From an uncultured Methanosarcinales archaeon (GTDB lineage: Archaea > Nanobdellota > Nanobdellia > Woesearchaeales > CAYSVS01), in contig CAZPRK010000001.1 of assembly GCA_964589485.1 (NCBI GenBank), positions 127,272 to 159,271 of the forward strand: DNA of 32,000 nt. The letters are read 5' to 3'. This document shows positions 1,247 through 30,024 of this stretch, one piece after another (position 1 is the stretch's first letter; each line of letters starts with the position of its first letter). A model generated the notes under the pieces. That model ran no database searches. It was not told where the DNA came from and was given only the letters and a program-made list of their open reading frames with translations. The position numbers and the translations under genes are program-made.

Positions 1247-2472
1247 TTTATTATATTAATAGAGTCGCTAGATATATTTCCCATAATTACTCCATTTTTC
1301 TCTTCTTGTTTTTTTTCAATAGATAAAACATTATTTAATATATCAATTACTTTCCCACTTATCATTACTCCTGAAACAGGTTTATTTTCGAAAATAGCAT
1401 GTTCTGCTGTTACTGAAAAGTCACTTGTTAAGGAATTACCGAGATGTGCCCCAATTATTGATTCTACAAAAATTCCATTTTCTGTATTTTTTTCTTTTCC
1501 TTCAATTATAATATTTGAAAAGTCTATATCATTTCCAAAAGAATTACCTGTAGTTTCAGTATTATTGTGTTTTGCAGTATTAAAATCATAAATAAATTTT
1601 TTTAATTCACCTTTATCAACTAAACATGTTTTTTGGCTCGGAGTTCCTTCTCCATCAAACATAAAACTTCCCATTGCATCGTTTTTTAAACCATCATCAA
1701 ATATACTAATTTCATCGCTTGTTACTTTTTGATTAAGTTTATCACAAAATAAACTTTTATGTTTTTCTACATTTTTTCCATTGAAATTAGTTAATAAACA
1801 GTGGTGTAATAAGGATGAAAAAACTTCAGGTGAAAGTGTTACTGTTTTAGTTTTACCTTCGTATTTTTGTTTATTTAAGTAAAGTAATGTTTTTTCATTA
1901 ACTCCATCTCCAAAGTTATCGAAATATTTATTTTTTTCTTCAGTTTCATACCATGAACTAACTTTTCCATTTTTATTTGCAACACTTTCAACTCCTATTC
2001 CGAAAGAACTTGATTTTTCATTTAATTCAATTCCATTTGAGTTATAAATAAAACTTTCACTAACATTGGCATTTATATCCCCTTCAGCAATCATTACATT
2101 ATTGTGAGCAATTTTTTTAATTATTTCTTTAGCATCTTGAATCATAGTATTTTCATTTAGTTCTTCAACACTTTTATCAAATGTTTTAGGTTTATTATAT
2201 TTTTTAAGTGAAGGTATTCCATAAAAATATTCTTTATTAGTATTATTTTTGGCAATTTTTATGGCTTTATTTGCTAGGTCTAAATTTAAAGCATTACTTG
2301 TAGCTCTTCCTTCTTTTCCATCGATCCAAACTTTTAATGTAAAATTAGAATTGTGATTATAACTAAAACTTTTTATTTTATTATTTTTAATTTGAATTTC
2401 TCTGTCTATTTCTTTATCTATATTTAATTGAACGTGGTCTGCAAATTTTTCTGCATAATTTAAAATTTCCAT
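1243..2472 (-). CDS. pmbA: PmbA/TldE, the non-catalytic partner of the TldD metalloprotease
   Basis: The long ORF reaches 2517, but starting at MEILNYAEKF (ATG 2472-2470) gives a TAATG stop/start overlap with the upstream tldD. It shows TldD/PmbA-family features (MFDGEGTP, GAHLGNSLTSDFS) and lacks HExxxH, as expected for TldE. Confidence 0.85.
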   Translation of the reverse strand: MEILNYAEKFADHVQLNIDKEIDREIQIKNNKIKSFSYNHNSNFTLKVWIDGKEGRATSNALNLDLANKAIKIAKNNTNKEYFYGIPSLKKYNKPKTFDKSVEELNENTMIQDAKEIIKKIAHNNVMIAEGDINANVSESFIYNSNGIELNEKSSSFGIGVESVANKNGKVSSWYETEEKNKYFDNFGDGVNEKTLLYLNKQKYEGKTKTVTLSPEVFSSLLHHCLLTNFNGKNVEKHKSLFCDKLNQKVTSDEISIFDDGLKNDAMGSFMFDGEGTPSQKTCLVDKGELKKFIYDFNTAKHNNTETTGNSFGNDIDFSNIIIEGKEKNTENGIFVESIIGAHLGNSLTSDFSVTAEHAIFENKPVSGVMISGKVIDILNNVLSIEKKQEEKNGVIMGNISSDSINIIN

Positions 2473-3824
2473 TATATTCCACCTATTGTTGCATCGTGAA
2501 CTAACATGCTTGGGCAAGGTCCATATACAGGCACTAGTTGCCCGCCTTTTCCACAGTGTCCTGCAAAACTTGGTTCATATTTATTAGATAACATTTTTAT
2601 ATTTTTTAGAGTATGTAAAGTATTTCCGCTTAAAGAAACTCCTCTTAATCTTCCTGCTAATTTTCCATTAATTATTTCAAATCCTTCTTGAGCTGAAAAT
2701 GCAAAATTTCCACTTATTGGGTCAACTTGTCCACCTGTACTTCCTTTTAAGTAAACTCCTTTTTTTACATCTTCAATTAATTCTTCAAATTTATAATCGC
2801 CTGTTTTAATGTATGTATTACTCATTCTTACTTGGGGTAAGAATTCAGAGCTTTGAGCTCTAGCATTTCCAGTCGGCTTTGCATTTAACTTTGCTGCACT
2901 TTCTCTTGAATGCATATATCCAACAAGTTCACCATTTTTCATTAAATTTGTTTTTTGTGCTTCAATTCCTTCGTCATCATAAAAGAAACTTCCCCATTCT
3001 TTGTTCATTGTAGCATCATCATATATAGATACAAAATCAGGAGCTAATTTTTTACCTATTAAATTTTTTAAACAACTACTATTTTGCATAACTAAATCAG
3101 CTTCTGCAGCATGTCCTAAAGCTTCATGGACAAACACATCTGTCATTGCACCATCGCATACAACTGGCATCTTTCCAGCTTTTGGTACTTTACTGTTTAA
3201 CATTTCAATGGCTTTTTTAGTTGCAGTTTCTACCATTGTTGGTAGGTTTTTACATATTTCATAACCTTGTAATTTTCCTAGTCTTTCTGCAAAATTTTCC
3301 ATACGATTTCCATCTTTACTTGTAAGTGTAGCTCCAATGTGTGTGTATTTGAGATTTTGTCTAATTTCTGATTCATCTGAATTACAAAACAATAATTTTT
3401 TATTAATTTCTTGATATGTAACATGATTATTTTTTATTTTATCATTTTCTACTTTAGAATTATCTAAAACTAATTTTTTCTTTTCTTCTAAACTTATATC
3501 TTCATTATTTATTTCATATTCACTGCTTACTTCATCTTTTATTGCTTTTGAATGAACTATGTTTTCTTTTTCATTACTTCCCATTGCTTTTGCTATTTTA
3601 TTAGCTTTTTCAATCATGGTTTTAATGTCATCTTCAACTGAAAAAACAAATCCCCAACCATTATTGTTTAATATTCTAAAACTTTTTCCAACTCTTTCAT
3701 TTAAATCAAAATTTTTAATTTTGTTATTCCATGCAGAAACTGAAGTTGAAGATATATTTTGTTCCCTATAATCCCAATATTCAAAATTTTCTTTTTTTAA
3801 AAGGTTAGATATTTTATTAAACAT
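2472..3824 (-). CDS. tldD: TldD-type zinc metalloprotease
   Basis: Contains the HEALGHAAE (HExxxH) zinc motif, YDDEGIEAQKT, GNARAQS and GGQVDPISGNFAFS. It is paired with pmbA immediately downstream. Confidence 0.9.
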   Translation of the reverse strand: MFNKISNLLKKENFEYWDYREQNISSTSVSAWNNKIKNFDLNERVGKSFRILNNNGWGFVFSVEDDIKTMIEKANKIAKAMGSNEKENIVHSKAIKDEVSSEYEINNEDISLEEKKKLVLDNSKVENDKIKNNHVTYQEINKKLLFCNSDESEIRQNLKYTHIGATLTSKDGNRMENFAERLGKLQGYEICKNLPTMVETATKKAIEMLNSKVPKAGKMPVVCDGAMTDVFVHEALGHAAEADLVMQNSSCLKNLIGKKLAPDFVSIYDDATMNKEWGSFFYDDEGIEAQKTNLMKNGELVGYMHSRESAAKLNAKPTGNARAQSSEFLPQVRMSNTYIKTGDYKFEELIEDVKKGVYLKGSTGGQVDPISGNFAFSAQEGFEIINGKLAGRLRGVSLSGNTLHTLKNIKMLSNKYEPSFAGHCGKGGQLVPVYGPCPSMLVHDATIGGI

Positions 3825-3863
3825 GATTTAAAGATTTTAAAGGTTATTTACATACTTTTTGGT

Positions 3864-4289
3864 TTAGTCAAAGTAATCTTCTTCACAAAAATTTTGACTT
3901 CTTCCTTTAAACGTACAAGTTCCTTTATCTTCTATCAAATTTCCATCTAAAAACTCTCTATATCTGTTAACCAAATTACAACAATCTTTACATCTGCTGA
4001 AATTTGATCCAATTTCAACTTCAAACTCCTTTTCAGAAATATTTTTTAATTTAGTGGGAACTTGGGCTTGAATTCTAAAATAATTATAAGTATTTTCAAT
4101 AAATTTATTATCTGAGAATTTGTTTGATAAATTAATAGATAACTTACAAGACTTTGGAGAATATGTACTTACAACATCTTTTCTTATTTTAATACATTTT
4201 TGATTTTCTAATCTACTTTTTTCTAAATCTTTATCTTTTTGCATTGATGAAGGTAATTTTATACTTCCATCTGGATTAAATTCGAACAT
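3864..4289 (-). CDS. Hypothetical cysteine-rich protein (141 aa, 7 Cys)
   Basis: Clean ORF whose ATG lies 3 nt after the tyrS stop, in the same orientation as tyrS and tldD-pmbA. It has a C-terminal cluster CKDCC-x24-C-x10-C. I do not recognise the family. Confidence 0.6.
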   Translation of the reverse strand: MFEFNPDGSIKLPSSMQKDKDLEKSRLENQKCIKIRKDVVSTYSPKSCKLSINLSNKFSDNKFIENTYNYFRIQAQVPTKLKNISEKEFEVEIGSNFSRCKDCCNLVNRYREFLDGNLIEDKGTCTFKGRSQNFCEEDYFD

Positions 4290-4292
4290 CTT

Positions 4293-5366
4293 TCATTTAC
4301 TCACTTTAAAACTTTGAACTTGTTCAAATAACTCTCTTGCTTTTTTATTTTTTTCAAAATGTTCTCTAACTGGAGAAATAGTTTGATTAATATAATTAGA
4401 AATTCCTTGCTTTAAATCTCCTGGGTGTAATTCTTTTTTTTCATAACTTTTAACTAAATCATTATAACTTCCAAAACTTAAATTTCCTCCAAATTTGGTA
4501 GGCCTTTCGATATTAAATTCTTTGAATTTTTCAAAAACAATATATTTAGCATATTCTAATACTGGATTATCTTGAACAATACCTTCTGGACAATATGCTT
4601 TATTTATTTTTTTAGTTATAACTTTTTCATCATCTGTCATAAAAATAGCTGTATCTGGGTTTGTCTTAGACATTTTCATTGCCATTGCTTTTTCTACTCC
4701 TTCTAAATTACTAGGTGGTTGTCCTAACCCCATTAACATATGATGATGTATTGCAACTGGTTTATACCCAAATAATTTTTGTCCAACTTCTCTTGCCAAA
4801 ACATTAACTTTTCTTTGATCCATACCTAATTGACATAAATCTACATTAAGATGAAAAATATCAGCTGTTTGCATGCATGGATACATAACTTGACTAGTTT
4901 TCAAAGAATCACTTTCACTTCTTCCCATAATTTGACTACATCTAATTGCTCTTTTAATTGTAGTATTTGTGGCTACTTGCATAACTTTCTTTAAATAATC
5001 TCTATCTTGCATTAAATCGTTTGCCCATACAAATTCAACTTTATTTAAATTCATTCCACTAACTTTCCATAATTCTATCAAATATTTTCCAACAGTTTGT
5101 ATTTTTTCTAAGTCTCCGCCTAATTTATCATTTGCCCATGCGTGCCAATCTGCAACTAACATTTTAAATTTAATTCCAGCTTTAGTTAGTTTATTTATGT
5201 TAATAGAACGGATTGTGACTTGCGCTATGTGCGGATTTCCGCTTGGTTCAAAACCATCATAAGCAATTGGGCTTTTTTTAGTTTCTAATAGTTGTTTTAA
5301 CTTTTCTTCTGTAAGGATTTCTTCGCCAACTTGCTTACATAAATCTAATTTTGTTTGAATGTCCAT
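4293..5366 (-). CDS. tyrS: Tyrosyl-tRNA synthetase, archaeal type
   Basis: Contains the class I motifs GNPHIAQ (HIGH-type) and KMSKT (KMSKS). It is colinear with archaeal TyrRS strings I remember from Methanocaldococcus TyrRS: YDGFEPSG, KKAYCPEG..DNPVLEYAKY, RPTKFGG and KELHPGDLK. Confidence 0.92.
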   Translation of the reverse strand: MDIQTKLDLCKQVGEEILTEEKLKQLLETKKSPIAYDGFEPSGNPHIAQVTIRSININKLTKAGIKFKMLVADWHAWANDKLGGDLEKIQTVGKYLIELWKVSGMNLNKVEFVWANDLMQDRDYLKKVMQVATNTTIKRAIRCSQIMGRSESDSLKTSQVMYPCMQTADIFHLNVDLCQLGMDQRKVNVLAREVGQKLFGYKPVAIHHHMLMGLGQPPSNLEGVEKAMAMKMSKTNPDTAIFMTDDEKVITKKINKAYCPEGIVQDNPVLEYAKYIVFEKFKEFNIERPTKFGGNLSFGSYNDLVKSYEKKELHPGDLKQGISNYINQTISPVREHFEKNKKARELFEQVQSFKVSK

Positions 5367-6799: not shown

Positions 6800-7180
6800 A
6801 TGAAAGATAGTTTAAGAAAAAATAAAGTAATTCTTGATTTGCAAAAACAATTAGATCATAAAGATCAAATTATTAAAAATTTAGAAAGTAAAGAATTTCT
6901 TAAACATTCAATTTTTGAATTATTGGAACAATTAAAGAAAAAAGATAAATTACTTGATAATTATGAAAAGTTATTAGAAAAATGTAAAATTCATTCAGTT
7001 GAAAATAAAATAATAATTTCATCTCAACATAAAGAAATTTTAGAATTAAATAAACAAATAAGACAATTACAATTATACAATAATGAACATTTATTACAAA
7101 ATCAAATTAATGCAATTAAAGAAGAAAATTTTGCATTATATAAAAAAATACATATATTAGAAGAAAAAATAAAAAATTAG
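6800..7180 (+). CDS. Hypothetical coiled-coil protein (126 aa, K/E/L/Q-rich)
   Basis: ORF lying 26 nt downstream of rfcS on the same strand. It shows heptad-like periodicity throughout and no recognisable motif. Confidence 0.5.
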   Translation: MKDSLRKNKVILDLQKQLDHKDQIIKNLESKEFLKHSIFELLEQLKKKDKLLDNYEKLLEKCKIHSVENKIIISSQHKEILELNKQIRQLQLYNNEHLLQNQINAIKEENFALYKKIHILEEKIKN

Positions 7181-8127
7181 TCAATGTGTTTTACAATGAC
7201 TTCAGTATTTATTTTGTCTTGATATCTGTATTCGACTTCTATATTTATTTGTTTAACTGCATCGTTTCTTTGATTTAATTGTTGTGTACAAATTAAACTT
7301 CTAGTTTCTGCTCTATTGTCTCCGAATAATGAAACTTCTCCAGTGGTTCCTCCACCTAATTCATTACATTTTAAGTCTCCATCTTCGATACCACTTTTTA
7401 CGGTTACAAATACTTTATTTTTGTTGGCTAAGTCAGGTTCACATGCACTATCTTTTTTGAAAATCAATCCTTCACCTACGTGATTAATGTCAAAAGAAAA
7501 ACTAACTTTGTCTTCTGCAACAGCGGTTTCTTTAAAATTAGATACTTTTACTGGTGCTCCTGAGTTTTCTACTTCTTTTACTTCATCAACAGAACATAAT
7601 GGTTCTTCTCCTGATTTTCTTGTTTTTCCTAATAAGTCTTCCAATATGCAAATTTTAGATACTACTTTAGTTTCATATGGATAACAAACTTCTCCAACTA
7701 AAGGATAACTAACTGACCCAGTTACTTCTGAAGCTTGTAAATTTGCAAAATCGATGGTTTCAATTCCTCCATCTATAACATTATTGTTTGGATCTAAACT
7801 TGCTCCATTCAAATCTAATTGAGATGTTTTTGTAAGTTCAACATTTCCAAAATCGCTTGGACTTATACCTTTAATTTTAACTATTGCTTCACTTTTCGGA
7901 ATATCTGCTTCTCCTACATTTTCAATTCTTAAATTAATATTAAATGGATAATTTTTATCGAATACTTCTTCAGGTGGAGTTCCTTTTACAAATTTAATAT
8001 CTAATCCTTTTTCACCGCCTACGAAAGCATTTGTAGTTGCTCCTGATGATGTTTTATCGCTATCTGTTTGACTTTCACAAGCAACTAACATTGTTAAAAC
8101 CATTAATAATACAATTATTTTTTTCAT
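7177..8127 (-). CDS. Secreted lipoprotein candidate (316 aa), paralogue of 8138-9076
   Basis: Signal peptide MKKIIVLLMVLTMLVAC with a lipobox-like LVAC. Blocks shared with the neighbour include G-KG(L/I)-x-KF(V/M)K-x-x-PP, (I/L)xIxNxG, CY-x-YET...(I/V)CI, GAP(V/I) and a C-terminal (V/I)VK. Both mature proteins have six Cys in the same order. Confidence 0.7.
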   Translation of the reverse strand: MKKIIVLLMVLTMLVACESQTDSDKTSSGATTNAFVGGEKGLDIKFVKGTPPEEVFDKNYPFNINLRIENVGEADIPKSEAIVKIKGISPSDFGNVELTKTSQLDLNGASLDPNNNVIDGGIETIDFANLQASEVTGSVSYPLVGEVCYPYETKVVSKICILEDLLGKTRKSGEEPLCSVDEVKEVENSGAPVKVSNFKETAVAEDKVSFSFDINHVGEGLIFKKDSACEPDLANKNKVFVTVKSGIEDGDLKCNELGGGTTGEVSLFGDNRAETRSLICTQQLNQRNDAVKQINIEVEYRYQDKINTEVIVKHID

Positions 8128-8137
8128 TTTTTTTCAC

Positions 8138-9076
8138 CTATTTTGGAATTTTGACAATTTCTACTTCTTGCGCAATTGAATCCATATATCCATAATTTAA
8201 CTTAATTTCTAATGGAGTTGAATACGCATATTGATTTTGACTTGGAATGTTGAATGAACAAAAAATAGTTCCCTTTCCATTAACTAATCTAACTTCTCTT
8301 GTAGGGCTACATTTTTCAGGTCTTTGTCCGGCCATTTTAACCTGGTATTGTATTTTGTTAAGGTCATCATATTTTAAATTAAAAGGGCAATCATTATGAT
8401 TAACAACTTTACCTCTTGCAAAATTACTGATTTCAATTCTGAAATGAGCTTTATCTTTTACAGAGTCTACTCTTACAACGTCTACACCAATAGGTGCACC
8501 TTGTCCTCCACCTGTTGAAACATCTCTAACAAGGCATGCTTTATCTTCAACACTTACATCATAAAATTTAGGATCAATACAAACTACTGGGTTCGATAAG
8601 GTTTCATATTGATAACACATAGTTGCCAAAAATTTAGGGTTATATGAATCTGAACCTTCAGGTAATTTTATTATATTTGATTTGAATTCAATGGTTTCAA
8701 TGTCGCCTTGTAAATTAAATTTATTTTTACCTTCAAGTGTTCTAAATCTTTTATTGTTATCAATGCCCCTAAGAATTACTGGGTCATATCCTGTTAAAAA
8801 AACTTTTCCATCTGTTTTATGTGCGCCTTCATTTTTAATTTCTAACACTAAACTTAAATCATTATTATCATAAATTCTTCTTGGAGGAAGATTTTTCATG
8901 AATTTCATTGTAATACCTTTTGTTCCTTGATAAATTTTATCATTAAGAACTCCTCCTCCTGCTGTTTCGGAATTAGCTCTTTTTTGTGCACTTAGCCGAG
9001 AACATCCAGTGCTAAAAATTAAGATTATTATAATTAAAGAAATAATTATCAATCTTTTTTTTATTATCCTATTCAT
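8138..9076 (-). CDS. Secreted lipoprotein candidate (312 aa), paralogue of 7177-8127
   Basis: N-terminal anchor/signal RLIIISLIIIILIFSTGC. Conserved blocks are as listed for 7177-8127. It lies 10 nt upstream of its paralogue on the same strand. Confidence 0.7.
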   Translation of the reverse strand: MNRIIKKRLIIISLIIIILIFSTGCSRLSAQKRANSETAGGGVLNDKIYQGTKGITMKFMKNLPPRRIYDNNDLSLVLEIKNEGAHKTDGKVFLTGYDPVILRGIDNNKRFRTLEGKNKFNLQGDIETIEFKSNIIKLPEGSDSYNPKFLATMCYQYETLSNPVVCIDPKFYDVSVEDKACLVRDVSTGGGQGAPIGVDVVRVDSVKDKAHFRIEISNFARGKVVNHNDCPFNLKYDDLNKIQYQVKMAGQRPEKCSPTREVRLVNGKGTIFCSFNIPSQNQYAYSTPLEIKLNYGYMDSIAQEVEIVKIPK

Positions 9077-15390: not shown

Positions 15391-15663
15391 TTATTCATCT
15401 TGTTCCTCTGGATTATAACTTGGCACTGCTGCTTTACTTATAATCATAATATCACCAATACTTTTTACTAATTGATGAGGAACTATTACACCTTTTGCAC
15501 TACCTAAAACTTGATTTAAGTATGAGTTTCTACTTGCCTTTACTTTCCATCCAAATAACTTGTTACTTGTCAAGATACTTTCTTCAATATCTCCAAAGTA
15601 ATCTCCATGATCTGTAAAAACTTTCATTTCGTATGTTTCAGAAATTCTCTTTAGTTTAAGCAT
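15391..15663 (-). CDS. Stand-alone PRC-barrel domain protein (90 aa), second copy in the window
   Basis: Contains VFTDHGDYFGDIEESIL ... VIVPHQLVKSIGDIMIISK, which parallels the motifs of ORF 5515-5778. It has an acidic tail. Confidence 0.65.
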   Translation of the reverse strand: MLKLKRISETYEMKVFTDHGDYFGDIEESILTSNKLFGWKVKASRNSYLNQVLGSAKGVIVPHQLVKSIGDIMIISKAAVPSYNPEEQDE

Positions 15664-15780: not shown

Positions 15781-16884
15781 ATGATGAAATGGTTATTACC
15801 TACTGTCGCGGCATTATCTATTGGAGCTACTTCTCTCTCTAGGAAAAATATAGATGAAGTAGTAAATTCTGATTTAAATTCTACTACTATTTCAAGTAAA
15901 AGTAGTTCTATTTCAGTTGATTATAGTTCTATAGTACAAATTATTGATAAACATAGAATTGTAAATTCAAAAATGTCTAAAGGGTTTAAAGCCATTGCTT
16001 TATCAAATTTAGCAGAGGGTATTGTAAAATATACTATTGAAAATCCAGAAAATAAGACTGAATCAATAGACTTATTAGAGAAAATATTACAAGATGTTTT
16101 ATTTGAAAGTGTATCTCCAATAAAAGGAGGTTTATTTGATACGTCTAATTATAAAAATCATAATTTGTATTTAACACATACTAATATTATTCTTGGATGT
16201 ATTGAATTATTAACAAAAAATAATAAACATTCAAAACTTCATAAACAAATTACTAACCATTTAGTTGATAAAAGTTTAGAACATAAAACCAGTACTGCGA
16301 TTTCGTATCAAAAACAAAATTTAAGGTGGCCAGCAGATCAAACAGCCTTATTGTTTTCTCTATATTTATACGATAGAGTAAATAATTCTTCTATTAGTAA
16401 AAAACCTATAAAGAAATGGCTAAATTATATGTCATATAAAGGTATAGATCCAAAAACAAATTTACATATTTCTGGTTTTTCTGGAAATAAGAAAGATAAA
16501 CTTCCAAGAGGTTGCGCACTATCGTGGAGTGTTTATTATATGTCTTATTTCGCACCAATAGAAGCTAAACAACTTTGGACTAATTTCAATAAACATTTCA
16601 AAGAAGATTATTTTTTTGTAGCGGGTTTTAGAGAATGGCCTAAGAATGTTAGTTATTCTAGTGATGCTGACAGTGGACCTATAATTTATGGCATAGGTGT
16701 ATCTGCTACTGGGTTTGGACTTAGGGCTGCCTATTCAATGAAGGATACTGAAACAAGAGATAAAATATTAAATTCATATTCTATTTTACAAAATTTAGCA
16801 AAACCTTTAGGTTTTAATTTATCTAGTATAAATGGTGTTTTAGGTTCATCTCTTCTTTTTAATATATCAAAAACAAAATTATAG
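15781..16884 (+). CDS. Hypothetical protein (367 aa) with an N-terminal hydrophobic signal or anchor
   Basis: N-terminus is MMKWLLPTVAALSIGATSL. The remainder looks helical-repeat-like and is W/Y-rich (WPADQTALLFSLYLYD, GCALSWSVYYMSYF, GFREWPKN). I cannot place the family. Its stop abuts the stop of the convergent 838-aa gene. Confidence 0.6.
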   Translation: MMKWLLPTVAALSIGATSLSRKNIDEVVNSDLNSTTISSKSSSISVDYSSIVQIIDKHRIVNSKMSKGFKAIALSNLAEGIVKYTIENPENKTESIDLLEKILQDVLFESVSPIKGGLFDTSNYKNHNLYLTHTNIILGCIELLTKNNKHSKLHKQITNHLVDKSLEHKTSTAISYQKQNLRWPADQTALLFSLYLYDRVNNSSISKKPIKKWLNYMSYKGIDPKTNLHISGFSGNKKDKLPRGCALSWSVYYMSYFAPIEAKQLWTNFNKHFKEDYFFVAGFREWPKNVSYSSDADSGPIIYGIGVSATGFGLRAAYSMKDTETRDKILNSYSILQNLAKPLGFNLSSINGVLGSSLLFNISKTKL

Positions 16885-19401
16885 TTAGTTAACTCTTGTA
16901 CACTCTTGATTATTATTTGTACACTTCATAGTCCATTGACTAACCATATTATATTCTCTTGCTTTGCCAATTTTAGTTAAATAATTAGATAATTTATGAG
17001 GTACTTTTAGGCTTCGAGAATCTGTTTTTTTATATTTTTGTTTTATAAATTCAGGTACATATTTAGAATCTATAAATTTTTGTACTAATTGTTTACCTGT
17101 TTTGATGATTGTTACTTTTGGACCAGTTTCAAAATCATATGGGTCTTTTACAAAGAAAGTTATTTCAACACTACCATCATCTTTTTTTTGGTATTGACTA
17201 CTTAATCCAAACTTATGATTGGTATAGTACAAGTCTTTATCTTGATTCAATGAAGGAGTAATTATACCATTTCTAACTTGACCATAATTGTAATCGTAAT
17301 TACCTGTGTTTAAAGCTGCTTCTTGAGAAGTAATTCTTCCTTGTTCTTGAGATTCTGATTTTTGTATTGCTTTTTTTGTCATTTGATCAATTACTTTTTT
17401 AGTTACACTTGATTCCAAATAAATATTAGGATCTATTTCTAAATCAGAACCATCTGCAGATAAATAATGATATAGTGATTTTGCTGCATTATTTCCCATA
17501 ACAACTCCACCACCTGCAACCATGCTATAATATAATCCATCTATAAAATTAATATCAGAAGCTGCTAATTCTTGATTTTTTTCAATTTTATTAGTGATTT
17601 CTTTTATTTTAGTTTGCATATTTTTAATTTTTACAGGATTACCAACTGAAAGATCATATCCAACGTTTGCCATATTTTGGATTTTCTTTATTGAAAATAC
17701 ATTGCTACCTTTTGGTGGTTTGAATTCTTCAAATTCACCATTTTTTGTAATTCTCCCTAATTCCATTCCATTTTTATCTCTTAATATAATTTCTGTTTTT
17801 GTTTTAAATGCGAGATCTGAATTTTTTTTTAAACTTTTAAATATTTTAGAGTTAATACTTTCATAGTTGGTATTACCTATACTTAGCGAATTTTTACCTT
17901 GTAAATCTATTTCAACTTTACCATCTATTTGAAAATCAACTTCTCCTGGTTTTGTAGTTATAAACATTCTACCTGTATTCGGTGATAATGTGATTGAACT
18001 TAATTTGCCATAATTTGAATATTGTTTAAATGATGCTCTTCCAAATTTACCATCTGCTGAACATCCTGACTTTGTTCTGATACCTGTGCAAACGCCTTTT
18101 TTTGAATATATTGAGTTTTGCCAATTACGTAGTGCGCGGTCTGTATTAGGTCCAAATCTCCCATCGATTTGTTTAGATTTGTCACCCTTAAGAAAACCAA
18201 AGTCATAAAGCATAGTTTGTATTTTTTTAACAGAATCTCCTTTATCCCCTTTTTGAAAATATTTATTATTTCTTGATTTCGAAAAATCTACATTAGCATA
18301 ACTATTTTTATTATTAATTGGTTTTAAACCGGCAATAGATTGTAAATATGTTTCATAAACTTTTATTTTGTATGCATTTGAGTTACCTTGGATATCTAAA
18401 GAATTAGGAGTAATTATTATTTTATTTTGCTTTCCAATTTCTTTTTTTTCAAAAAATTTAAACATATTGGATTTAGCACTTTCTAAAATACTAGTATCAA
18501 TTGAATCATCAAATTCAATATTTACATCTTTTTTTTGTGCAAAAATATCTAATTCTGCACCATTATTGTGAGTTATTTTTAGTTTAGTTCCCCTTAAAAC
18601 ATTTAGTTTTTTCCCAAGGAAGTGCATTTTTTCTTTATCTATTATAATTTTTCCTTGAATATAAATTTCTTTATTTATGGCAATAATCTCTGCGTCATTT
18701 ATAGTCATTAGATTTTGTTGAGTATCATATTTGAAGTTAGAAATTGACGGAAATTTAACTCCATTAATTGATTTTGCTTTTCCTTCTATTTTTCCATTCT
18801 GATTAAATTTAATACCATAACCCAATTTCACAGGAACTCCATCTAAATTACCAGATATTATCCTTATATTTCCTGTTGAATCTTTAACAATTTCCCCACT
18901 GAATGAATGTTCATTTTTTCCTTTATCAATTATTAGAATATTTCCATCTGAATTTACTATGAAATTATATTTTTCTTTGAAGTCTTGAATATTTATTTTT
19001 CCATTCTTGGCCGTGATTAAACCATCACTATTTATTTCTTCTATATTTCCAACTAGTTCTATAGTTATACCTAATTTTTTTGAATATCTTTCAAAATCTG
19101 TTTTTCCTACATTAATATTATTCACTTCGGAAAAAAATTCTTTTGCAATTTTTAAGTCTTTATCACTAAAGTCAGAATTTATTATATATTGTTTTTTCTG
19201 ATCTACATTGAGTTTATTAAAATCTTCAATAGTAGGTTCCTCTAAATTAGATAGATCTTCCCAAGAAGGATTTTCAATTGTTTCAAAAGCGCTTCTACAT
19301 TCACTTTGTGAACTACATTCTGCAAGAACATTTGAAGATAAAGTAAATAAAATAATTAGGTATATGTAATATTTATTCTTCATTAATTTCACCTGAAACA
19401 T
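16885..19401 (-). CDS. Large secreted protein (838 aa) with a PG_binding_1-like peptidoglycan-binding module and an unassigned C-terminal domain
   Basis: Signal peptide (MFQVKL)MKNKYYIYLIILFTLSSNVLA|ECSS; an alternative ATG lies at 19383. Residues 382-428, FQKGDKGDSVKKIQTMLYDFGFLKGDKSKQIDGRFGPNTDRALRNWQ, match the G-x-x-G-x-x-V-x-x-(L/I)Q-x-x-L ... DG-x-FG-x-x-T-x-x-A(L/V)-x-x-(F/W)Q signature of bacterial PG-binding domains. The flanking regions are beta-rich and Gly/Asn/Lys-rich. Confidence 0.8.
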   Translation of the reverse strand: MFQVKLMKNKYYIYLIILFTLSSNVLAECSSQSECRSAFETIENPSWEDLSNLEEPTIEDFNKLNVDQKKQYIINSDFSDKDLKIAKEFFSEVNNINVGKTDFERYSKKLGITIELVGNIEEINSDGLITAKNGKINIQDFKEKYNFIVNSDGNILIIDKGKNEHSFSGEIVKDSTGNIRIISGNLDGVPVKLGYGIKFNQNGKIEGKAKSINGVKFPSISNFKYDTQQNLMTINDAEIIAINKEIYIQGKIIIDKEKMHFLGKKLNVLRGTKLKITHNNGAELDIFAQKKDVNIEFDDSIDTSILESAKSNMFKFFEKKEIGKQNKIIITPNSLDIQGNSNAYKIKVYETYLQSIAGLKPINNKNSYANVDFSKSRNNKYFQKGDKGDSVKKIQTMLYDFGFLKGDKSKQIDGRFGPNTDRALRNWQNSIYSKKGVCTGIRTKSGCSADGKFGRASFKQYSNYGKLSSITLSPNTGRMFITTKPGEVDFQIDGKVEIDLQGKNSLSIGNTNYESINSKIFKSLKKNSDLAFKTKTEIILRDKNGMELGRITKNGEFEEFKPPKGSNVFSIKKIQNMANVGYDLSVGNPVKIKNMQTKIKEITNKIEKNQELAASDINFIDGLYYSMVAGGGVVMGNNAAKSLYHYLSADGSDLEIDPNIYLESSVTKKVIDQMTKKAIQKSESQEQGRITSQEAALNTGNYDYNYGQVRNGIITPSLNQDKDLYYTNHKFGLSSQYQKKDDGSVEITFFVKDPYDFETGPKVTIIKTGKQLVQKFIDSKYVPEFIKQKYKKTDSRSLKVPHKLSNYLTKIGKAREYNMVSQWTMKCTNNNQECTRVN

Positions 19402-20386
19402 TCATAGTTAAAAATACATTTTTAATCATACTTGAATTATCTTTAACATCTACTTTTATTATATGTTCTCCTAGTTCTTCAATTGTAGGAACAAACGTTA
19501 TTAATCCTGTTTTGTTATTAATTTCGAATAAATCAGTATCATCGTAGAACATTGGGCTTTGTGCATCAGTTTCTATTTTGTACTGAAACTTTCGGCCAAT
19601 ATGCGCAAATAATTTATTTGGTTGGTTTATATTAAATTCTAATTGTGAATTTATAGTAATTATGTGGGCAAAAGTAAATTTTAGATCTTTTGATGTAAGA
19701 GTATAAATTATTAAATTATTTAAGCCCGAATCTATTAATTCAACATCAATATCTATCTCTTTACTTCTTTGGTTATTGTAAAAACAACTAATACATATGT
19801 CTTCTGATTTAGTTTGTTGTTCGGTAATATTAATAGATAGCAAATACATGTCGTAGTACAATGTATTTAATTTCCCACTAAATTGTTCCATGATTGTTTG
19901 CGAATTAGAATGGTTTATTTTAATAGGTAAAAATAAATCATATTTTAATTCATCTGTTGTCATAAAAACATCTAAGTTTAATTTTTTATAATTAGCATCT
20001 AAATCAAATTTTTTTAATGGATTATTTTCAATACATGTAGGAACTATCGATTTAAAACCATTTTCAATTTCAAATTCTAGTTGTTTTTTATTTGGAATTA
20101 ATTGATTTTTGTTTGTTAGATAATTTCGAATCTTATTTTCTATTAGAAATTCATTACTGCTTGAAGAAGTGTTAATATTAAAAAATCCACCTTGTAATGC
20201 ATTATATTTTAATACATCTTCGAATCTATCATTAAAGCAAAGTTGAAGATATTGATTTAATGAATTAAGGCCTGTTTCTGAATTATCGCTGAAATCTTTG
20301 GAATTATTTTGAAGAAATATAAATAGCAAGATTATCAAAAAAATACCTAAAACTAGAAATAAAGTCAATTGCCCTTTTTTTTGCAT
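19373..20386 (-). CDS. Exported or anchored protein (337 aa) with a class III (type IV pilin-like) signal candidate and a C-terminal cadherin/Ig-like domain
   Basis: The N-terminus MQKKGQLTLFLVLGIFLIILLFIFL has a KG|Q motif followed by a hydrophobic helix. The C-terminus FQYKIETDAQSPMFYDDTDLFEINNKTGLITFVPTIEELGEHIIKVDVKDNS fits the cadherin-like (dystroglycan/He_PIG-type) pattern. Its 3' end overlaps the start of the 838-aa gene by 11-29 nt. Confidence 0.7.
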   Translation of the reverse strand: MQKKGQLTLFLVLGIFLIILLFIFLQNNSKDFSDNSETGLNSLNQYLQLCFNDRFEDVLKYNALQGGFFNINTSSSSNEFLIENKIRNYLTNKNQLIPNKKQLEFEIENGFKSIVPTCIENNPLKKFDLDANYKKLNLDVFMTTDELKYDLFLPIKINHSNSQTIMEQFSGKLNTLYYDMYLLSINITEQQTKSEDICISCFYNNQRSKEIDIDVELIDSGLNNLIIYTLTSKDLKFTFAHIITINSQLEFNINQPNKLFAHIGRKFQYKIETDAQSPMFYDDTDLFEINNKTGLITFVPTIEELGEHIIKVDVKDNSSMIKNVFLTMNVSGEINEE

Positions 20387-20417
20387 TATATAATTAATAA
20401 ATTAACTATATATAAAA

Positions 20418-21380
20418 TTATTCTTTACTTAAAGCTAAATCTGCTATCTCTTTTACTACATTATATGGAAGTGCAAAACCAAGTCCTTCTGATTTATCTA
20501 TTTTTAAAGTATTTATTCCTACAATACGCTTTCCCGAATTAACTAAAGGTCCTCCTGAATTTCCTGGGTTTATGCTAACATCTGTTTGAATATATTTAAC
20601 ATCAGTATTATCTATTTGTCTATTAGTGGCACTAATTATTCCTTCAGTGACACTAAAACTTAATCCCAAAGGATTTCCAACTGCAATAACTCTTTGGCCA
20701 ACATTTACATTATCTGCAAATTTTAAATATGAAAAACTTTTATTAGAAATTATTTTTAATACTGCTAAATCTAAAGTATTTGCAACTCCAAGTATTTGTA
20801 CGTTATAAACTTCCCCATTATAATCAACAACTCTAATTGCAGAAGCTCCTTCAATTACGTGCTTATTGGTCATAATATAACCATCTGCAAAAAATACACC
20901 ACTTCCTTGGCCATTATTAGTTTGAACATTTACTACAGCTTTAACAACATCTTCAACTATTGCAGAAAAATCACTACTTTCAACATCTATTTCTGAAATT
21001 TTACCTTCAAGATTTCCAACTTGTGAGGTAATATCTTCTAAACCTTGTTCAGTAGAACTTTTAACGGTTTCCAAATCTGATTTAACATTTCCTACTTGAC
21101 TTTCAAGGTTAAGTTTTAATTTAGTAGTTTCTGTATTAAAATAATCTTGTAATTTTGCAAAATTATTAATTGTTTCAGTCTTTAAAATTTCTCTTTCGTT
21201 TTTACTATACTCATTTGTATTTTTGATTTGGTTTGTTAATAAATTATGAGATTTAACAAGATTTTCACTTAAATCTAAATTTTGTTTTTCGAATTTTTCA
21301 TTTAGTGTAAAATAAACTAAAGTATTGCTTAATATAACTAATATAATTGTTATAATTATTAATTTTTCATTTTTTTTCAT
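20418..21380 (-). CDS. Membrane-anchored trypsin-like serine protease (S1C/HtrA-type catalytic domain, no PDZ)
   Basis: N-terminal TM segment LIIITIILVILSNTLVYFTL, followed by about 110 aa of coiled-coil-like spacer. The catalytic triad contexts are TNKHV (His), DLAVLKI (Asp) and GNSGGPL (Ser). The protein ends right after the protease fold. Confidence 0.85.
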   Translation of the reverse strand: MKKNEKLIIITIILVILSNTLVYFTLNEKFEKQNLDLSENLVKSHNLLTNQIKNTNEYSKNEREILKTETINNFAKLQDYFNTETTKLKLNLESQVGNVKSDLETVKSSTEQGLEDITSQVGNLEGKISEIDVESSDFSAIVEDVVKAVVNVQTNNGQGSGVFFADGYIMTNKHVIEGASAIRVVDYNGEVYNVQILGVANTLDLAVLKIISNKSFSYLKFADNVNVGQRVIAVGNPLGLSFSVTEGIISATNRQIDNTDVKYIQTDVSINPGNSGGPLVNSGKRIVGINTLKIDKSEGLGFALPYNVVKEIADLALSKE

Positions 21381-22157: not shown

Positions 22158-22907
22158 ATGTTTGAAATAAAAGAAAGAATTAGAAAATATTTTGCATTTA
22201 GTAAAGATGAAATAAAAAGTTTAACTATAGTAATTCTTTTATTAGGATTCATTGTTGGATTTGATGATGGAAGGGTATCAAATTCAATTGATATCTTTTA
22301 TGCATTTAATATGTTAAATTCCTTAATCATTGTAACTTTGGCTGTTTTAGTACACATTTCCGCACAAAGAATTGTTGGATTGCAAGCAGGTTTCAAATGT
22401 ATTTTTAAAGTTTGGTGGTATGGTATTGCTTTTAGTTTAATTCTAACTTTTATGACTGGGGGAAATTTTTGGGTTTTTTTACCTGGCGGAATAATGGTTT
22501 TAATGCTTGAAAGACAAAGATTAGGTAAGTTTAGATATGGTTTAAACTATTGGGCAATAGGATTAACAAGTTTTGCCGGGCCTTTAGCAAATATTTTATT
22601 AGCACTTTTCTTGAAAGTTTTATCTAATATTACTTTTATTGCTTCAAATGCGTTATTGGAGAAAGCTATTTTAGTTAATGTTATTTTCGCATTATATACT
22701 TACTTACCTATTCCTCCTTTGGATGGATTTGCTTTATTTTATGCTTCACGGTTAACTTATGTATTTTCTTACGGAGCATTAATTGGAGCATCAATACTAT
22801 TGTTATTTAAATTAAGTTTATTATTAACAATAATTGGAGCATTGTTAGTAGCAACAGCTATATGGGGAACTTATTATTATAAATTTGAGAGTGATGCACA
22901 TGGTTAA
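22158..22907 (+). CDS. Site-2-protease (M50, COG1994-like) homologue with a degenerate active site
   Basis: The layout FS-x-x-E(I)...(TM)...VLVH-ISAQ-RIVGLQAGF...AGPLANILLA...YLPIPPLDGF follows small M50 proteases. However, the HExxH position reads H-I-S-A-Q (22353-22367). The LDG Asp ligand motif is retained. Confidence 0.7.
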   Translation: MFEIKERIRKYFAFSKDEIKSLTIVILLLGFIVGFDDGRVSNSIDIFYAFNMLNSLIIVTLAVLVHISAQRIVGLQAGFKCIFKVWWYGIAFSLILTFMTGGNFWVFLPGGIMVLMLERQRLGKFRYGLNYWAIGLTSFAGPLANILLALFLKVLSNITFIASNALLEKAILVNVIFALYTYLPIPPLDGFALFYASRLTYVFSYGALIGASILLLFKLSLLLTIIGALLVATAIWGTYYYKFESDAHG

Positions 22908-23235
22908 CAAAAAAGGGTTTTCATATTTAAATTTCTGGGTAGAAGCTTATGCTATTTTGGGATTTGTAATTGGGTTTATTTTCGCAATAACTATGAGGAA
23001 TGTTTATGTGCTATATGCAATTACTTTTCTTTGTGGATTTATTTTAGCTAGAATATTATTTTTAATGAAGACTGAACCTACTTTTCCATTCTATCTTATG
23101 ATGTTTACAACCTTTATTGGTTTTGTTTTGGGAGGATGGATATCGAAAAATACATTTAGCTTGAAAATAATGACATTAGTGTTTTTAGGATCAATTTATA
23201 TTGGCTATAAATTACATTCTAAGGGATATTTGTGA
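22885..23235 (+). CDS. Small integral membrane protein (about 111-116 aa, about 4 TM helices)
   Basis: The track ORF starts at a TTG (22885). In-frame ATGs at 22894 and 22900 overlap the upstream stop (ATGGTTAA). The protein is highly hydrophobic. Its stop overlaps the GTG start of the next gene (GTGA). Confidence 0.55.
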   Translation: MRVMHMVNKKGFSYLNFWVEAYAILGFVIGFIFAITMRNVYVLYAITFLCGFILARILFLMKTEPTFPFYLMMFTTFIGFVLGGWISKNTFSLKIMTLVFLGSIYIGYKLHSKGYL

Positions 23236-28731: not shown

Positions 28732-30024
28732 ATGTCTAAATATATTGAAGTTGATAAAAATAAAGTACTTAAACATTATTCTAGAAAAGAAGTTCAAGAA
28801 GAAATTCTTAGATGTAGCACTGATAAAGAAGTAGTTGGGAGTTATGGTGGTAAGGGTTATGCTAAACGTCCAGATACTTTGATGTATGCGGGAGATGTTT
28901 TAGAATTAGTTAAGCAAGGAATTACTAGTTTTCATTTTTCTGAGGAAACTTGGCAAAATCCTCTTTCTATAGATCCATTAATGAAAAAAAATGAAATTGA
29001 AAATTTAAGAATAGGTTGGGATTTAATTTTAGATATAGATTGTGATGAATTAGAATATAGTGCAATGGCTGCGCATTTGCTAATTCAAGCATTGAAGTAT
29101 CACGAAATAGAAAATATTAGTGTGAAATTTTCAGGAAATCATGGTTTTCATATTGCAGTTCCATTTGAATCTTTTCCTGAATATATTAATGATATGGAGG
29201 TAAGAAAGTTATTTCCTGAAGCTCCAAGACGAATTGCTCTTTATTTGAAGGAAATGATACGTGAACATTTAACTAACATGTTACAGAAAGATTCTTTAGA
29301 AGAAATGGCAAAAAAAAGTAATAATCCTGAATTATTGCAAAAAGAAAAATTTGATCCTTTTGATGTATTGGAAGTTGATACAATTTTAATTTCATCTAGG
29401 CATTTATTAAGGCATGTATTTTCATTTAATGAGAAATCTGGTTTGGTTAGTATACCTATAACTTCTGAAGAGGTTTTGGGTTTTAAGAAAGATAGATCCT
29501 TACCAGAAAATATTACTGATTTTTCAACTAAGTTCTTAGATAGAACTAAATCTAAGAAAGGTGAAGCAAATCATTTATTTGTTCAAGCTTTTGATTTTAA
29601 ACCTCAAATTGAAGATGAGTTTAAACAATTAGTTGAATCTAAAAAAGAATATGAAATTCCTGAAGAAGCTATTCCTGAAGAATACTTTCCTCCTTGTATA
29701 AAAAAAATATTTTTAGGTTTAACTGATGGTAAAAAAAGAGCATTATTCATATTAATTAATTTTTTAAGGTGTGTTGGTTGGAGTTATGAACAAATTGAAG
29801 ATAGATTAAAAGAATGGAATAAAGTAAATCCTGAGCAATTAAGAGAAACTATTTTGTTGGGCCAAATACGGTACCATAAACAACAGAAAAAAAATATAAT
29901 GCCGCCTAATTGTACAAGTTCATATTATAAGGATTTACAAATTTGTTTTCCTGATAATTTATGTAATAAAATTAAAAATCCTATTCAATATTCTAGAAGA
30001 AAAACTTTTTTTAAGAAGCCTTAA
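28732..30024 (+). CDS. Single-chain archaeo-eukaryotic primase: PriS catalytic domain fused to a PriL C-terminal Fe-S-type domain
   Basis: The AEP motifs are I WDLILDIDCD (DxD), II FSGNHGFHIAVP (SGxxGxH), and III VDTILISSRHLLRHVFSFNEKSG. The C-terminal roughly 110 aa, PPC-IKKIF...KRALFILINFLRCVGWSYEQIEDRL...PPNC-x10-C-x5-C...NPIQY, resembles the 4-Cys PriL-CTD. Confidence 0.8.
   Translation: MSKYIEVDKNKVLKHYSRKEVQEEILRCSTDKEVVGSYGGKGYAKRPDTLMYAGDVLELVKQGITSFHFSEETWQNPLSIDPLMKKNEIENLRIGWDLILDIDCDELEYSAMAAHLLIQALKYHEIENISVKFSGNHGFHIAVPFESFPEYINDMEVRKLFPEAPRRIALYLKEMIREHLTNMLQKDSLEEMAKKSNNPELLQKEKFDPFDVLEVDTILISSRHLLRHVFSFNEKSGLVSIPITSEEVLGFKKDRSLPENITDFSTKFLDRTKSKKGEANHLFVQAFDFKPQIEDEFKQLVESKKEYEIPEEAIPEEYFPPCIKKIFLGLTDGKKRALFILINFLRCVGWSYEQIEDRLKEWNKVNPEQLRETILLGQIRYHKQQKKNIMPPNCTSSYYKDLQICFPDNLCNKIKNPIQYSRRKTFFKKP

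Follow-up and report, generated by a model that had tools for sequence, protein, structure and literature searches.

Three neighboring genes of an uncultured archaeon, coding for a pilin-like protein, a large modular protein with a predicted secretion signal and a convergently transcribed member of the linalool dehydratase/isomerase (LDI) superfamily, constitute a cassette that is real and conserved in Woesearchaeota-type DPANN archaea; of this we are practically certain. The genes are located in a stretch of 32,000 nucleotides on contig CAZPRK010000001.1 (GenBank assembly GCA_964589485.1, positions 127,272 to 159,271 of the forward strand), which is termed the window and to which all coordinates refer. 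We consider it moderately probable that the cassette encodes a modular effector against bacterial envelopes, together with a pilin-like presenter and an LDI-like partner. A previous reading of the same DNA, the initial annotation, had proposed a surface module of four genes, the fourth being a membrane-anchored protease. The three genes, the extracytoplasmic nature of their predicted products and the DPANN origin stood up; the protease, absent from about 55 related loci, had to be removed from the module.

A conserved three-gene cassette

According to open reading frames (ORFs) and homologues, the gene of the pilin-like protein (337 residues; 19373-20386, minus strand) precedes that of the putative secreted effector (838 residues, 832 from the likely start at ATG 19383; 16885-19401, minus strand). 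The gene of the LDI-like protein (367 residues; 15781-16884, plus strand), by ORF and profile match an (alpha/alpha)6-barrel protein with predicted export, converges on that of the effector so closely that the two stop codons abut, with a spacing of zero. The same triad, in the same order and orientation, was present in at least seven other distinct archaeal contigs (L046, L048, L050, L053, L054, L068 and L076; eight loci including the window). The flanking genes of these loci are unrelated and the proteins are 21-48% identical. The initial annotation had expected homologues to be syntenic in related genomes, and for these three genes they are.

The loci were reached in several ways. L046, L048 and L050 are archaeal contigs found via homologues of the LDI-like protein. 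In each of them the LDI-like gene converges on a gene for 697-881 residues, which is preceded, with an overlap of 4-23 nucleotides, by a gene for 281-437 residues. In BLASTP the 838-residue effector matched the L046 protein over its full length (E = 4e-74), and the 337-residue protein matched that of L050 with E = 2e-31, the pilin-like homologues spanning 2e-31 to 2e-13. L053 and L054, reached through the effector itself, again carried the triad, and a metagenome scan with a small alignment of LDI-like proteins (A6) added the complete triads of L068 and L076. Archaeal marker genes (S3Ae, RIO1, tRNA intron endonuclease, eIF-1A, Topo VI) are found near cassette loci. An exhaustive HMMER search returned 298 relatives of the effector, which match its N-domain (residues ~10-345) and its C-terminal domain (~585-838) separately. 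An orphan status of the 838- and 337-residue proteins had been considered when word-indexed searches gave near-identical copies only; it was overturned by the exhaustive HMMER search and by the neighborhoods of the LDI-like genes. In an RtcB-anchored comparison none of 44 related loci carried any of the four genes near RtcB. Therefore, the cassette moves within genomes.

The genomic context is archaeal. The window has a G+C content of 27% and contains the archaeal housekeeping genes for Topo VI A/B, RFC, RtcB, archease, Hef, a fused primase and L3. Its RtcB was 61-66% identical to RtcB from metagenome-assembled genomes of Woesearchaeota/Nanoarchaeota, which places the source among the DPANN archaea, and a public Joint Genome Institute metagenome contig carries a stretch identical to the window.

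The genes of the pilin-like protein and the effector overlap by 29 nucleotides if the latter starts at ATG 19401 and by 11 nucleotides if it starts at ATG 19383. ATG 19383 is most likely the start because the public gene call (P0001, 832 residues) begins there and a GGTGA is located 5 nucleotides upstream. This Shine-Dalgarno-like sequence in the 3' end of the pilin-like gene (19389-19393, minus strand) is a candidate coupling signal, weak on its own at 27% G+C. The ORFs, both overlaps, the gap of 31 nucleotides between the protease gene and the pilin-like gene and the convergence with zero spacing had been listed in the initial annotation and were all reproduced. Translational coupling, which it had suggested, gained support from overlaps of 4-23 nucleotides kept in six other loci. 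The N-terminal signals of all four proteins were judged by sequence reading and hydropathy alone.

The putative effector carries a peptidoglycan-binding domain

The effector is predicted to start with a Sec-type signal peptide (MKNK, a hydrophobic core and VLA/E; 19321-19401, minus strand), read from M7 in the 838-residue numbering and followed by Cys29 and Cys35; homologues display the same pattern. On the same strand follow the N-domain (NTD; residues 28-345, 18367-19320), a PG_binding_1 domain (residues ~378-445, 18067-18270), a beta-rich middle region (residues ~446-570, 17692-18066) and the C-terminal domain (CTD; residues 585-838, 16888-17649), which was aligned in A2. An AlphaFold2 model of the effector, computed from a 26-sequence alignment, had a mean pLDDT of 83.6. 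It shows, in order, a small helical bundle, a large beta-rich N-domain, a three-helix peptidoglycan-binding unit, a beta-rich region with strands between residues 469 and 552, long helices and an alpha/beta CTD. The NTD, a helical bundle with a beta-rich body that defines the family by model and hidden Markov model (HMM), was predicted with pLDDT above 90 over most of its length. Cysteines occur in three close pairs (29/35, 438/447 and 827/834), which fits an extracellular protein.

PG_binding_1 (PF01471) is the sole recognizable Pfam domain of the effector (residues 388-429; E = 2.4e-7, 31.2 bits at a cut-off of 23). Sequence matches in the PDB were SleB and an amidase peptidoglycan-binding domain; structural matches in BFVD were peptidoglycan-binding domains of phage endolysins (probability 1.0, root-mean-square deviation (rmsd) 1.6 Å, 81 columns). 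The bacterial-type peptidoglycan-binding module noted in the initial annotation is thus confirmed by a Pfam score above cut-off and by structure. The NTD had no match in Pfam, PDB or BFVD, and the middle region matched no family. A Foldseek search with the full-length model yielded nothing for either, and BFVD returned the peptidoglycan-binding domain only. Within the NTD family, at least 11 of 21 scanned members possess PG_binding_1 and three a YkuD L,D-transpeptidase. The NTD is combined with alternative C-termini, i.e. the CTD, YkuD, HEAT and others. Judged by these domain assignments, the NTD family is repeatedly tied to murein.

A contig 95.5% identical to the window, L060 (Ga0066863_10008534), contains at 2480-4341 the equivalent of window positions 16885-18747. 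Its orthologue of the effector gene shifts frame near residue 260, which reflects either an error in sequencing or a disruption of this allele.

A C-terminal domain reminiscent of colicin M

In profile searches the CTD had no sequence match in Pfam, NCBIfam or PDB, and the colicin M chains of the PDB were not among the hits. Invariant polar residues of the CTD family are few, namely Tyr646 and Asp753. They are part of the motifs HYLSADG (residues 645-651; 17449-17469) and DPYDF (residues 753-757; 17131-17145). The CTD alone was modeled by AlphaFold2 with a pLDDT of 88 and a pTM of 0.81. With the full-length and the CTD-only models the top Foldseek matches in the PDB were colicin M, syringacin M, PaeM and pectocin M2; for the CTD these had E-values of 0.07-2.9, rmsd values of about 10-12 Å and TM scores of 0.25-0.29, the range of unrelated folds.

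The sequences were then compared directly. The colicin M sequence was checked against the PDB, and family members were taken from PDB alignments and plasmid records. Both families have A-x-x-HY-L-x-G-x-G near the domain start in common (hhalign P = 0.0086), and both glycines of the colicin M motif A-x-x-HY-x-x-G-x-G are invariant in alignment A4. The same hhalign path places the invariant Asp753-x-Tyr-Asp of the CTD on Asp226-x-Tyr228-Asp229 of colicin M. Lipid II, a precursor of peptidoglycan, is cut by the colicin M catalytic domain between undecaprenol and the pyrophospho-sugar, which gives undecaprenol plus 1-pyrophospho-MurNAc(pentapeptide)-GlcNAc. The hydrolase activity requires the signature DxYDx5HR, of which degenerate versions are known in the family (PMC5821083). 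At this site the CTDs have an invariant Asp, an aromatic residue at +2 in all 18 sequences and Asp at +3 in 14 of the 18. Colicin M scored higher against the CTD HMM than each of 1800 shuffled decoys and, conversely, 10 of 18 CTDs reached p ≤ 0.016 against the colicin M HMM. The most divergent CTD, that of L048, keeps just the HYLxGxG and DxYD motifs.

Several results speak against a relationship with colicin M. At E ≤ 1 the Pfam family Colicin_M matched none of the 18 CTDs, and the NCBIfam model of lipid II-degrading bacteriocins had no CTD match at E ≤ 10. No structural match of the CTD reached an E-value of 0.001. With a single colicin M sequence and with an alignment of six members, hhalign gave a probability of about 5%, and the significant part consisted of a single 24-column motif, HYLxGxG. 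Finally, the CTDs do not conserve the His-Arg pair of the signature; Lys or Arg stands at +9/+10 in 9 of the 18, compared to 26% expected. Whether the CTD works like colicin M therefore appears evenly balanced to us. 'Colicin M-like' denotes the most likely mechanism as suggested by motifs and model, not an established membership in the family. A TelC-type lipid II phosphatase and pore-forming toxin folds were considered as well; nothing in the Foldseek lists supports either.

The pilin-like protein

The N-terminus of the 337-residue protein reads MQKKG/QLTLFLVLGIFLIILLFIFL, i.e. MQKKG/QLTLF followed by a 20-residue hydrophobic stretch. From sequence reading, a class III signal with its hydrophobic helix covers residues 1-26 (20309-20386, minus strand). 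The alignment then shows a globular domain (residues 27-255, 19622-20308) with four conserved cysteines, including a CxxC, and a QGG motif. A single He_PIG-type immunoglobulin (Ig) repeat, recognized by homologue match, occupies residues 256-331 (19394-19621). The sequence K/R-G-Q-x-T-x-F plus hydrophobic helix, the archaeal class III (prepilin) pattern, is invariant in five homologues. Invariant residues are K3, G5, Q6, T8, F10, G14, C50, Q65-G67, C118, C198 and C201. The window protein itself matched no Pfam or NCBIfam family. In the homologues a globular domain of about 230 residues is followed by zero to two He_PIG repeats. He_PIG, which belongs to the cadherin-like clan, was above the Pfam cut-off in four of six scanned homologues, and the repeat of the window protein is 39-44% identical to those of L048 and L050. 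The initial annotation, which had described a cadherin-like protein with a pilin signal, was correct in both respects. Together with the NTD and the CTD, the globular domain makes three protein families that are absent from Pfam.

The strict, translationally coupled pairing with the N-domain suggests a role in presentation: the pilin-like protein probably holds or displays the effector at the surface of the archaeal cell or on a pilus.

The LDI-like protein

The convergent gene had been regarded as an orphan in the initial annotation. This is no longer tenable: its product has 43 homologues, belongs to the LDI superfamily and is linked to the CTD of the effector. Using phmmer, the 367-residue protein matched LDI in the PDB with E = 4e-7, and the family profile (A5) matched LDI structures with E = 4e-26 over about 270 residues. 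The window protein alone had no Pfam match; its homologues P0042 and L054_371 carry PF18566. His129 of LDI is kept as His133. The catalytic cysteines are replaced in the LDI-like family, Cys171 by a near-invariant Ser175 and Cys180 by an invariant Asp186. Further motifs are PRGCA at 242, FREWP at 283 and DADSGP at 295. The N-terminus of the window protein is weakly signal-like; homologues have clear twin-arginine (Tat) motifs (RRNLL, SRRLFL) or a lipobox. Judged by its residues, the protein is a member of the LDI superfamily and not an LDI enzymatically. The family probably comprises exported enzymes with a chemistry differing from that of LDI because Cys171 and Cys180 are replaced.

Two separate linkages

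Scanning all fetched loci with HMMs of the four modules brought out two linkages. First, a pilin-like gene is located directly upstream of all 10 NTD genes that could be checked, including that of L055 and the second pair of L076, and of none of the four assessable CTD genes devoid of an NTD (L056, L072, L078 and L100). Second, each of the four loci fetched via a CTD protein (L053, L054, L056 and L100) has an LDI-like gene that converges on the CTD gene. These four represent three N-terminal architectures: the NTD, a long coiled-coil region and SH3_3. The same convergence was seen in eight loci fetched via the LDI-like gene. In total it was counted in 15 loci, a number that is biased because most loci with both genes were fetched via the LDI-like gene. 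In L055 (1272-5087) the effector ends in a YkuD L,D-transpeptidase, and the convergent partner is a 208-residue exported YkuD protein instead of an LDI-like protein. By analogy, the modular logic is that of polymorphic effectors, in which the presentation part and the activity part each keep their own partner.

Three loci deserve separate mention. L076 (202-10724) holds two pairs of pilin-like and N-domain genes back to back. One effector has 1233 residues with PG_binding_1 and without CTD, the other 721 residues with CTD; the LDI-like gene is situated between both pairs and converges only on the CTD gene. L056 and L046 have malic enzyme and cupredoxin genes around the cassette in common. The effector of L046 consists of the NTD type and has a pilin-like partner; that of L056 has a coiled-coil N-terminus of about 600 residues and no such partner, and this comparison suggests that the N-terminal half was exchanged in place. 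In L100, a 131-residue Cys-rich protein with a class III-like N-terminus (MFSKSGQG plus hydrophobic helix; 566-961) is encoded just upstream of an SH3_3-CTD gene without signal peptide. It may be a different small partner of the pilin type.

A putative effector against peptidoglycan-bearing cells

The attachment or envelope-remodeling apparatus proposed in the initial annotation is not what the data favor; they point to an effector against peptidoglycan-bearing cells rather than to pure adhesion or self-remodeling. That such cells are the target we consider likely. DPANN archaea make no murein themselves. The following course may be envisaged. The effector, Sec-secreted and stabilized by disulfides, would leave the archaeal cell and would be held or presented by its pilin-like partner at the cell surface or on a pilus. 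PG_binding_1 would then dock it on the wall of a neighboring or host bacterium, and the CTD, most likely very distantly related to the catalytic domain of colicin M, would damage the bacterial envelope by cutting lipid II.

For the LDI-like protein a comparison with colicin M is instructive. Most colicin M immunity genes lie on the opposite strand downstream of the toxin gene, and they comprise several unrelated types (PMC5821083). On plasmids of E. coli, cma and cmi converge with 49 nucleotides between them, and the LDI-like gene occupies the position typical for such immunity genes. It would not be a typical immunity protein because it is large, because it has enzyme-like invariant residues as in free-standing bacterial homologues and because the producer lacks lipid II. 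It could be a protective or neutralizing partner, or else an additional enzyme that uses the isoprenoid portion of the same substrate. The pair of two YkuD proteins in L055 mildly favors a partner that acts on the same substrate class.

Several points argue against this assignment of roles. To our knowledge archaea are without lipid II, so a need for immunity is not obvious. The LDI-like family keeps its enzyme-like invariant residues and occurs in bacteria without a CTD neighbor, as is the case for the LDI-like genes of high-G+C bacteria. The count of convergent loci is biased, as noted above. No gene for a pilus ATPase, platform protein or prepilin peptidase is present in the 32-kb window. 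Lastly, export was judged by sequence.

In a more specific version, two enzymes would jointly attack the lipid carrier cycle of bacteria. The characterized LDI isomerizes and dehydrates acyclic isoprenoid, allylic terpene alcohols, and undecaprenol, the product of colicin M, is an allylic polyprenol. In this version the CTD would free undecaprenol from lipid II and the LDI-like barrel would convert the polyprenol. The converted polyprenol might not be re-phosphorylatable, rendering the damage irreversible, or the isoprenoid might be harvested for a lipid-auxotrophic DPANN cell. To this version we assign little likelihood.

Of the alternatives, an adhesion or host-contact apparatus survives best. 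The large protein would be a non-enzymatic adhesin that attaches to the wall of a partner by PG_binding_1, with the CTD as a binding domain, the pilin-like protein as a fiber or anchor and the LDI-like protein only loosely related. PG_binding_1 together with Ig/He_PIG repeats is typical of adhesins, the NTD is without an enzymatic match, Asp753 and Tyr646 are the only invariant polar residues of the CTD, and homology to colicin M is weakly supported. Yet paralogues hold an enzyme, the YkuD L,D-transpeptidase, in the CTD position. The CTD keeps its own partner gene whether or not the adhesin-like parts are present, as effector cassettes do, and in a domain that only binds one would not expect an invariant Asp in a DxYD motif common to a hydrolase family. 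Overall, we consider adhesion as the sole function unlikely.

A toxin-immunity pair used between archaea is less probable still. Here the CTD would attack polyprenyl- or dolichyl-(pyro)phosphate glycan carriers or another envelope target of competing archaea, and the LDI-like protein would confer immunity on the producer. The LDI-like gene strictly tracks the CTD, downstream on the opposite strand like cmi (PMC5821083). Tat and lipobox N-termini of homologues would locate the protein where a toxin would act, and a protein devoted to protection is of use only to a producer that is itself sensitive. However, the target suggested by PG_binding_1 and by the paralogues with YkuD is murein, which is absent from archaea. 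Furthermore, the enzyme-like invariant residues are common to free-standing bacterial LDI-like homologues, and the partner of the YkuD effector in L055 is a YkuD enzyme and no typical inhibitor. We therefore regard this possibility as decidedly improbable. A self-directed role in envelope biogenesis or remodeling, i.e. S-layer or pilus anchoring or processing of lipid-linked glycans with the protease as quality control, would agree with the apparent extracytoplasmic location of all products, with a membrane-anchored protease 31 nucleotides upstream in this genome and with LDI-superfamily barrels that could use the cell's own isoprenoid lipids, but it is very improbable considering that the protease is not conserved with the cassette, that patchy occurrence (0 of 44 RtcB loci) and swapping of the C-terminal domain are atypical of core envelope machinery and that we know of no ligand for PG_binding_1 in DPANN envelopes.

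Relation to known systems

The initial annotation knew of no described system of this composition. This holds for the three-gene arrangement; its logic, with variable C-terminal domains and partner genes that change with them, is shared by polymorphic toxins and bacteriocins of the colicin M type. Neither the three-gene arrangement nor an LDI-like partner was found described in the literature, nor were LDI-like proteins as immunity proteins or in archaea.

The colicin M family (PF14859; colicin M, pectocins M1 and M2, syringacin M, PaeM) likewise has a C-terminal domain of catalytic type behind exchangeable N-terminal targeting regions. HYLxGxG and D-x-Y-D are common to both, in the same order and at similar spacing, and the partner gene is directly downstream on the opposite strand, as in cma/cmi. 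In contrast to that family, the CTD has no match at the HMM level, no His-Arg pair, TM scores below 0.3 and an archaeal producer. A Sec signal, the NTD and PG_binding_1 replace the TonB box and receptor-binding domain, and the 367-residue LDI-like barrel is unrelated to Cmi, PmiA and BmiA.

With polymorphic toxins the cassette has in common that one N-domain family is combined with alternative C-termini (CTD, YkuD, HEAT and others) and that the downstream partner changes with the C-terminal domain, LDI-like with CTD and YkuD with YkuD, the immunity function being putative. Unlike in those systems, known trafficking domains such as RHS, LXG and PT-VENN are absent, the constant partner resembles a type IV pilin and the partner genes are enzyme-like instead of coding for small inhibitors. 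Classical polymorphic toxin systems are rare in archaea (PMC3482391).

Peptidoglycan hydrolases have been described as 'particularly prominent' in Nanoarchaeota and those of archaea as modular, and homologues of colicin M have a patchy distribution among archaea (PMC12352652). For Woesearchaeota, a predatory way of life and large enzymes of the murein transglycosylase type have been suggested (PMC9723730). The modular hydrolases of archaea (Strock et al., 2025) and the woesearchaeal 'large lytic murein transglycosylases' (Castelle, 2015; Vigneron, 2022) are similarly secreted, combine murein binding with a wall-active domain and are proposed to act against bacteria. They differ in that the CTD falls into no recognized hydrolase family and would be missed by surveys of known domains, that its proposed target is the lipid-linked precursor and not the polymer, and that two conserved partner genes are present.

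LDI of Castellaniella defragrans (PDB 5G1U, PF18566) resembles the LDI-like protein in its (alpha/alpha)6 barrel, in His129 and in the DADxG and RE motifs; it is exported, as is predicted for the LDI-like protein. Ser175 and Asp186 stand in for Cys171 and Cys180, and the context is an effector cassette as opposed to monoterpene catabolism. Archaeal type IV pilin-like proteins (pilins, archaellins and the sugar-binding proteins of the bindosome) also start with K/R-G/Q and a hydrophobic helix, and bindosome proteins carry a large globular passenger after the pilin-type N-terminus as well. Here the globular domain is new, zero to two He_PIG repeats follow and coupling to one secreted family is strict; genes for pilus ATPase, platform and peptidase are not nearby in the 32-kb window.

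The cassette bears on the ways in which DPANN archaea contact and exploit other cells, and on whether some of them target bacteria rather than archaea. For this it is a concrete, conserved and testable candidate: a murein-binding, predicted secreted family with exchangeable, putatively wall-active C-termini, a pilin-like candidate presenter and an enzyme-like protein of an isoprenoid-related superfamily. Possibly it represents an archaeal branch of the colicin M fold overlooked by domain-based surveys of archaeal antibacterial weapons. Should the CTD prove to act on lipid II, enzymes that degrade wall precursors and need no outer-membrane import machinery could be obtained from a new source. 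If the two-enzyme attack were true, it would add a new activity to the LDI superfamily and offer a first mechanistic handle on the exploitation of bacteria by DPANN archaea.

Protease and other features of the window

The protease upstream of the cassette (320 residues; 20418-21380, minus strand) is, by its match to Pfam Trypsin_2 (E = 8e-32), a membrane-anchored S1C (HtrA-like) serine protease. It has one hydrophobic helix (residues ~7-26; 21303-21362), a coiled-coil-like stretch (20976-21293) and the protease domain (20436-20933) with the catalytic triad His174/Asp204/Ser275. A PDZ domain is absent, as the chain ends at residue 320, directly after the protease domain. The NCBIfam DegP/HtrA models match the catalytic half only, with a score of 170 at a cut-off of 416. 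From the 'anchored HtrA-type protease' of the initial annotation the S1C domain, the His-Asp-Ser triad and the membrane helix were retained; the PDZ domain expected of an HtrA was not there. A homologue was found in none of the approximately 55 related loci, in which other genes take its place. Membership in the cassette was therefore rejected; the protease is a chance or lineage-specific neighbor.

The 31-nucleotide spacer between the protease gene and the pilin-like gene (20387-20417) contains a TATA-like TTTATATA (20409-20416, minus strand) at -30 to -23 from the pilin-like ATG. It is a possible promoter of its own for the two-gene operon, giving a leaderless transcript. Motifs of the TTTATATA type are expected by chance at 27% G+C, so this is a hint only.

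Several ORFs of the window had no Pfam match. One of 90 residues (15391-15663, minus strand) is located between archease and the cassette, two proteins of 312-316 residues are encoded at 7177-9076 (minus strand), and two multi-helix membrane proteins of 249 and 116 residues follow a TraB-family gene (22158-23235, plus strand). Adjacent genes for TldD- and PmbA-type metallopeptidases (1243-3824, minus strand) overlap by 46 nucleotides; they form an ordinary pair unrelated to the cassette. An ORF of 430 residues (28732-30024, plus strand) matched both DNA_primase_S and DNA_primase_lrg and appears to be a primase with fused small and large subunits. Such fused primases have been reported for some nano-sized archaea.

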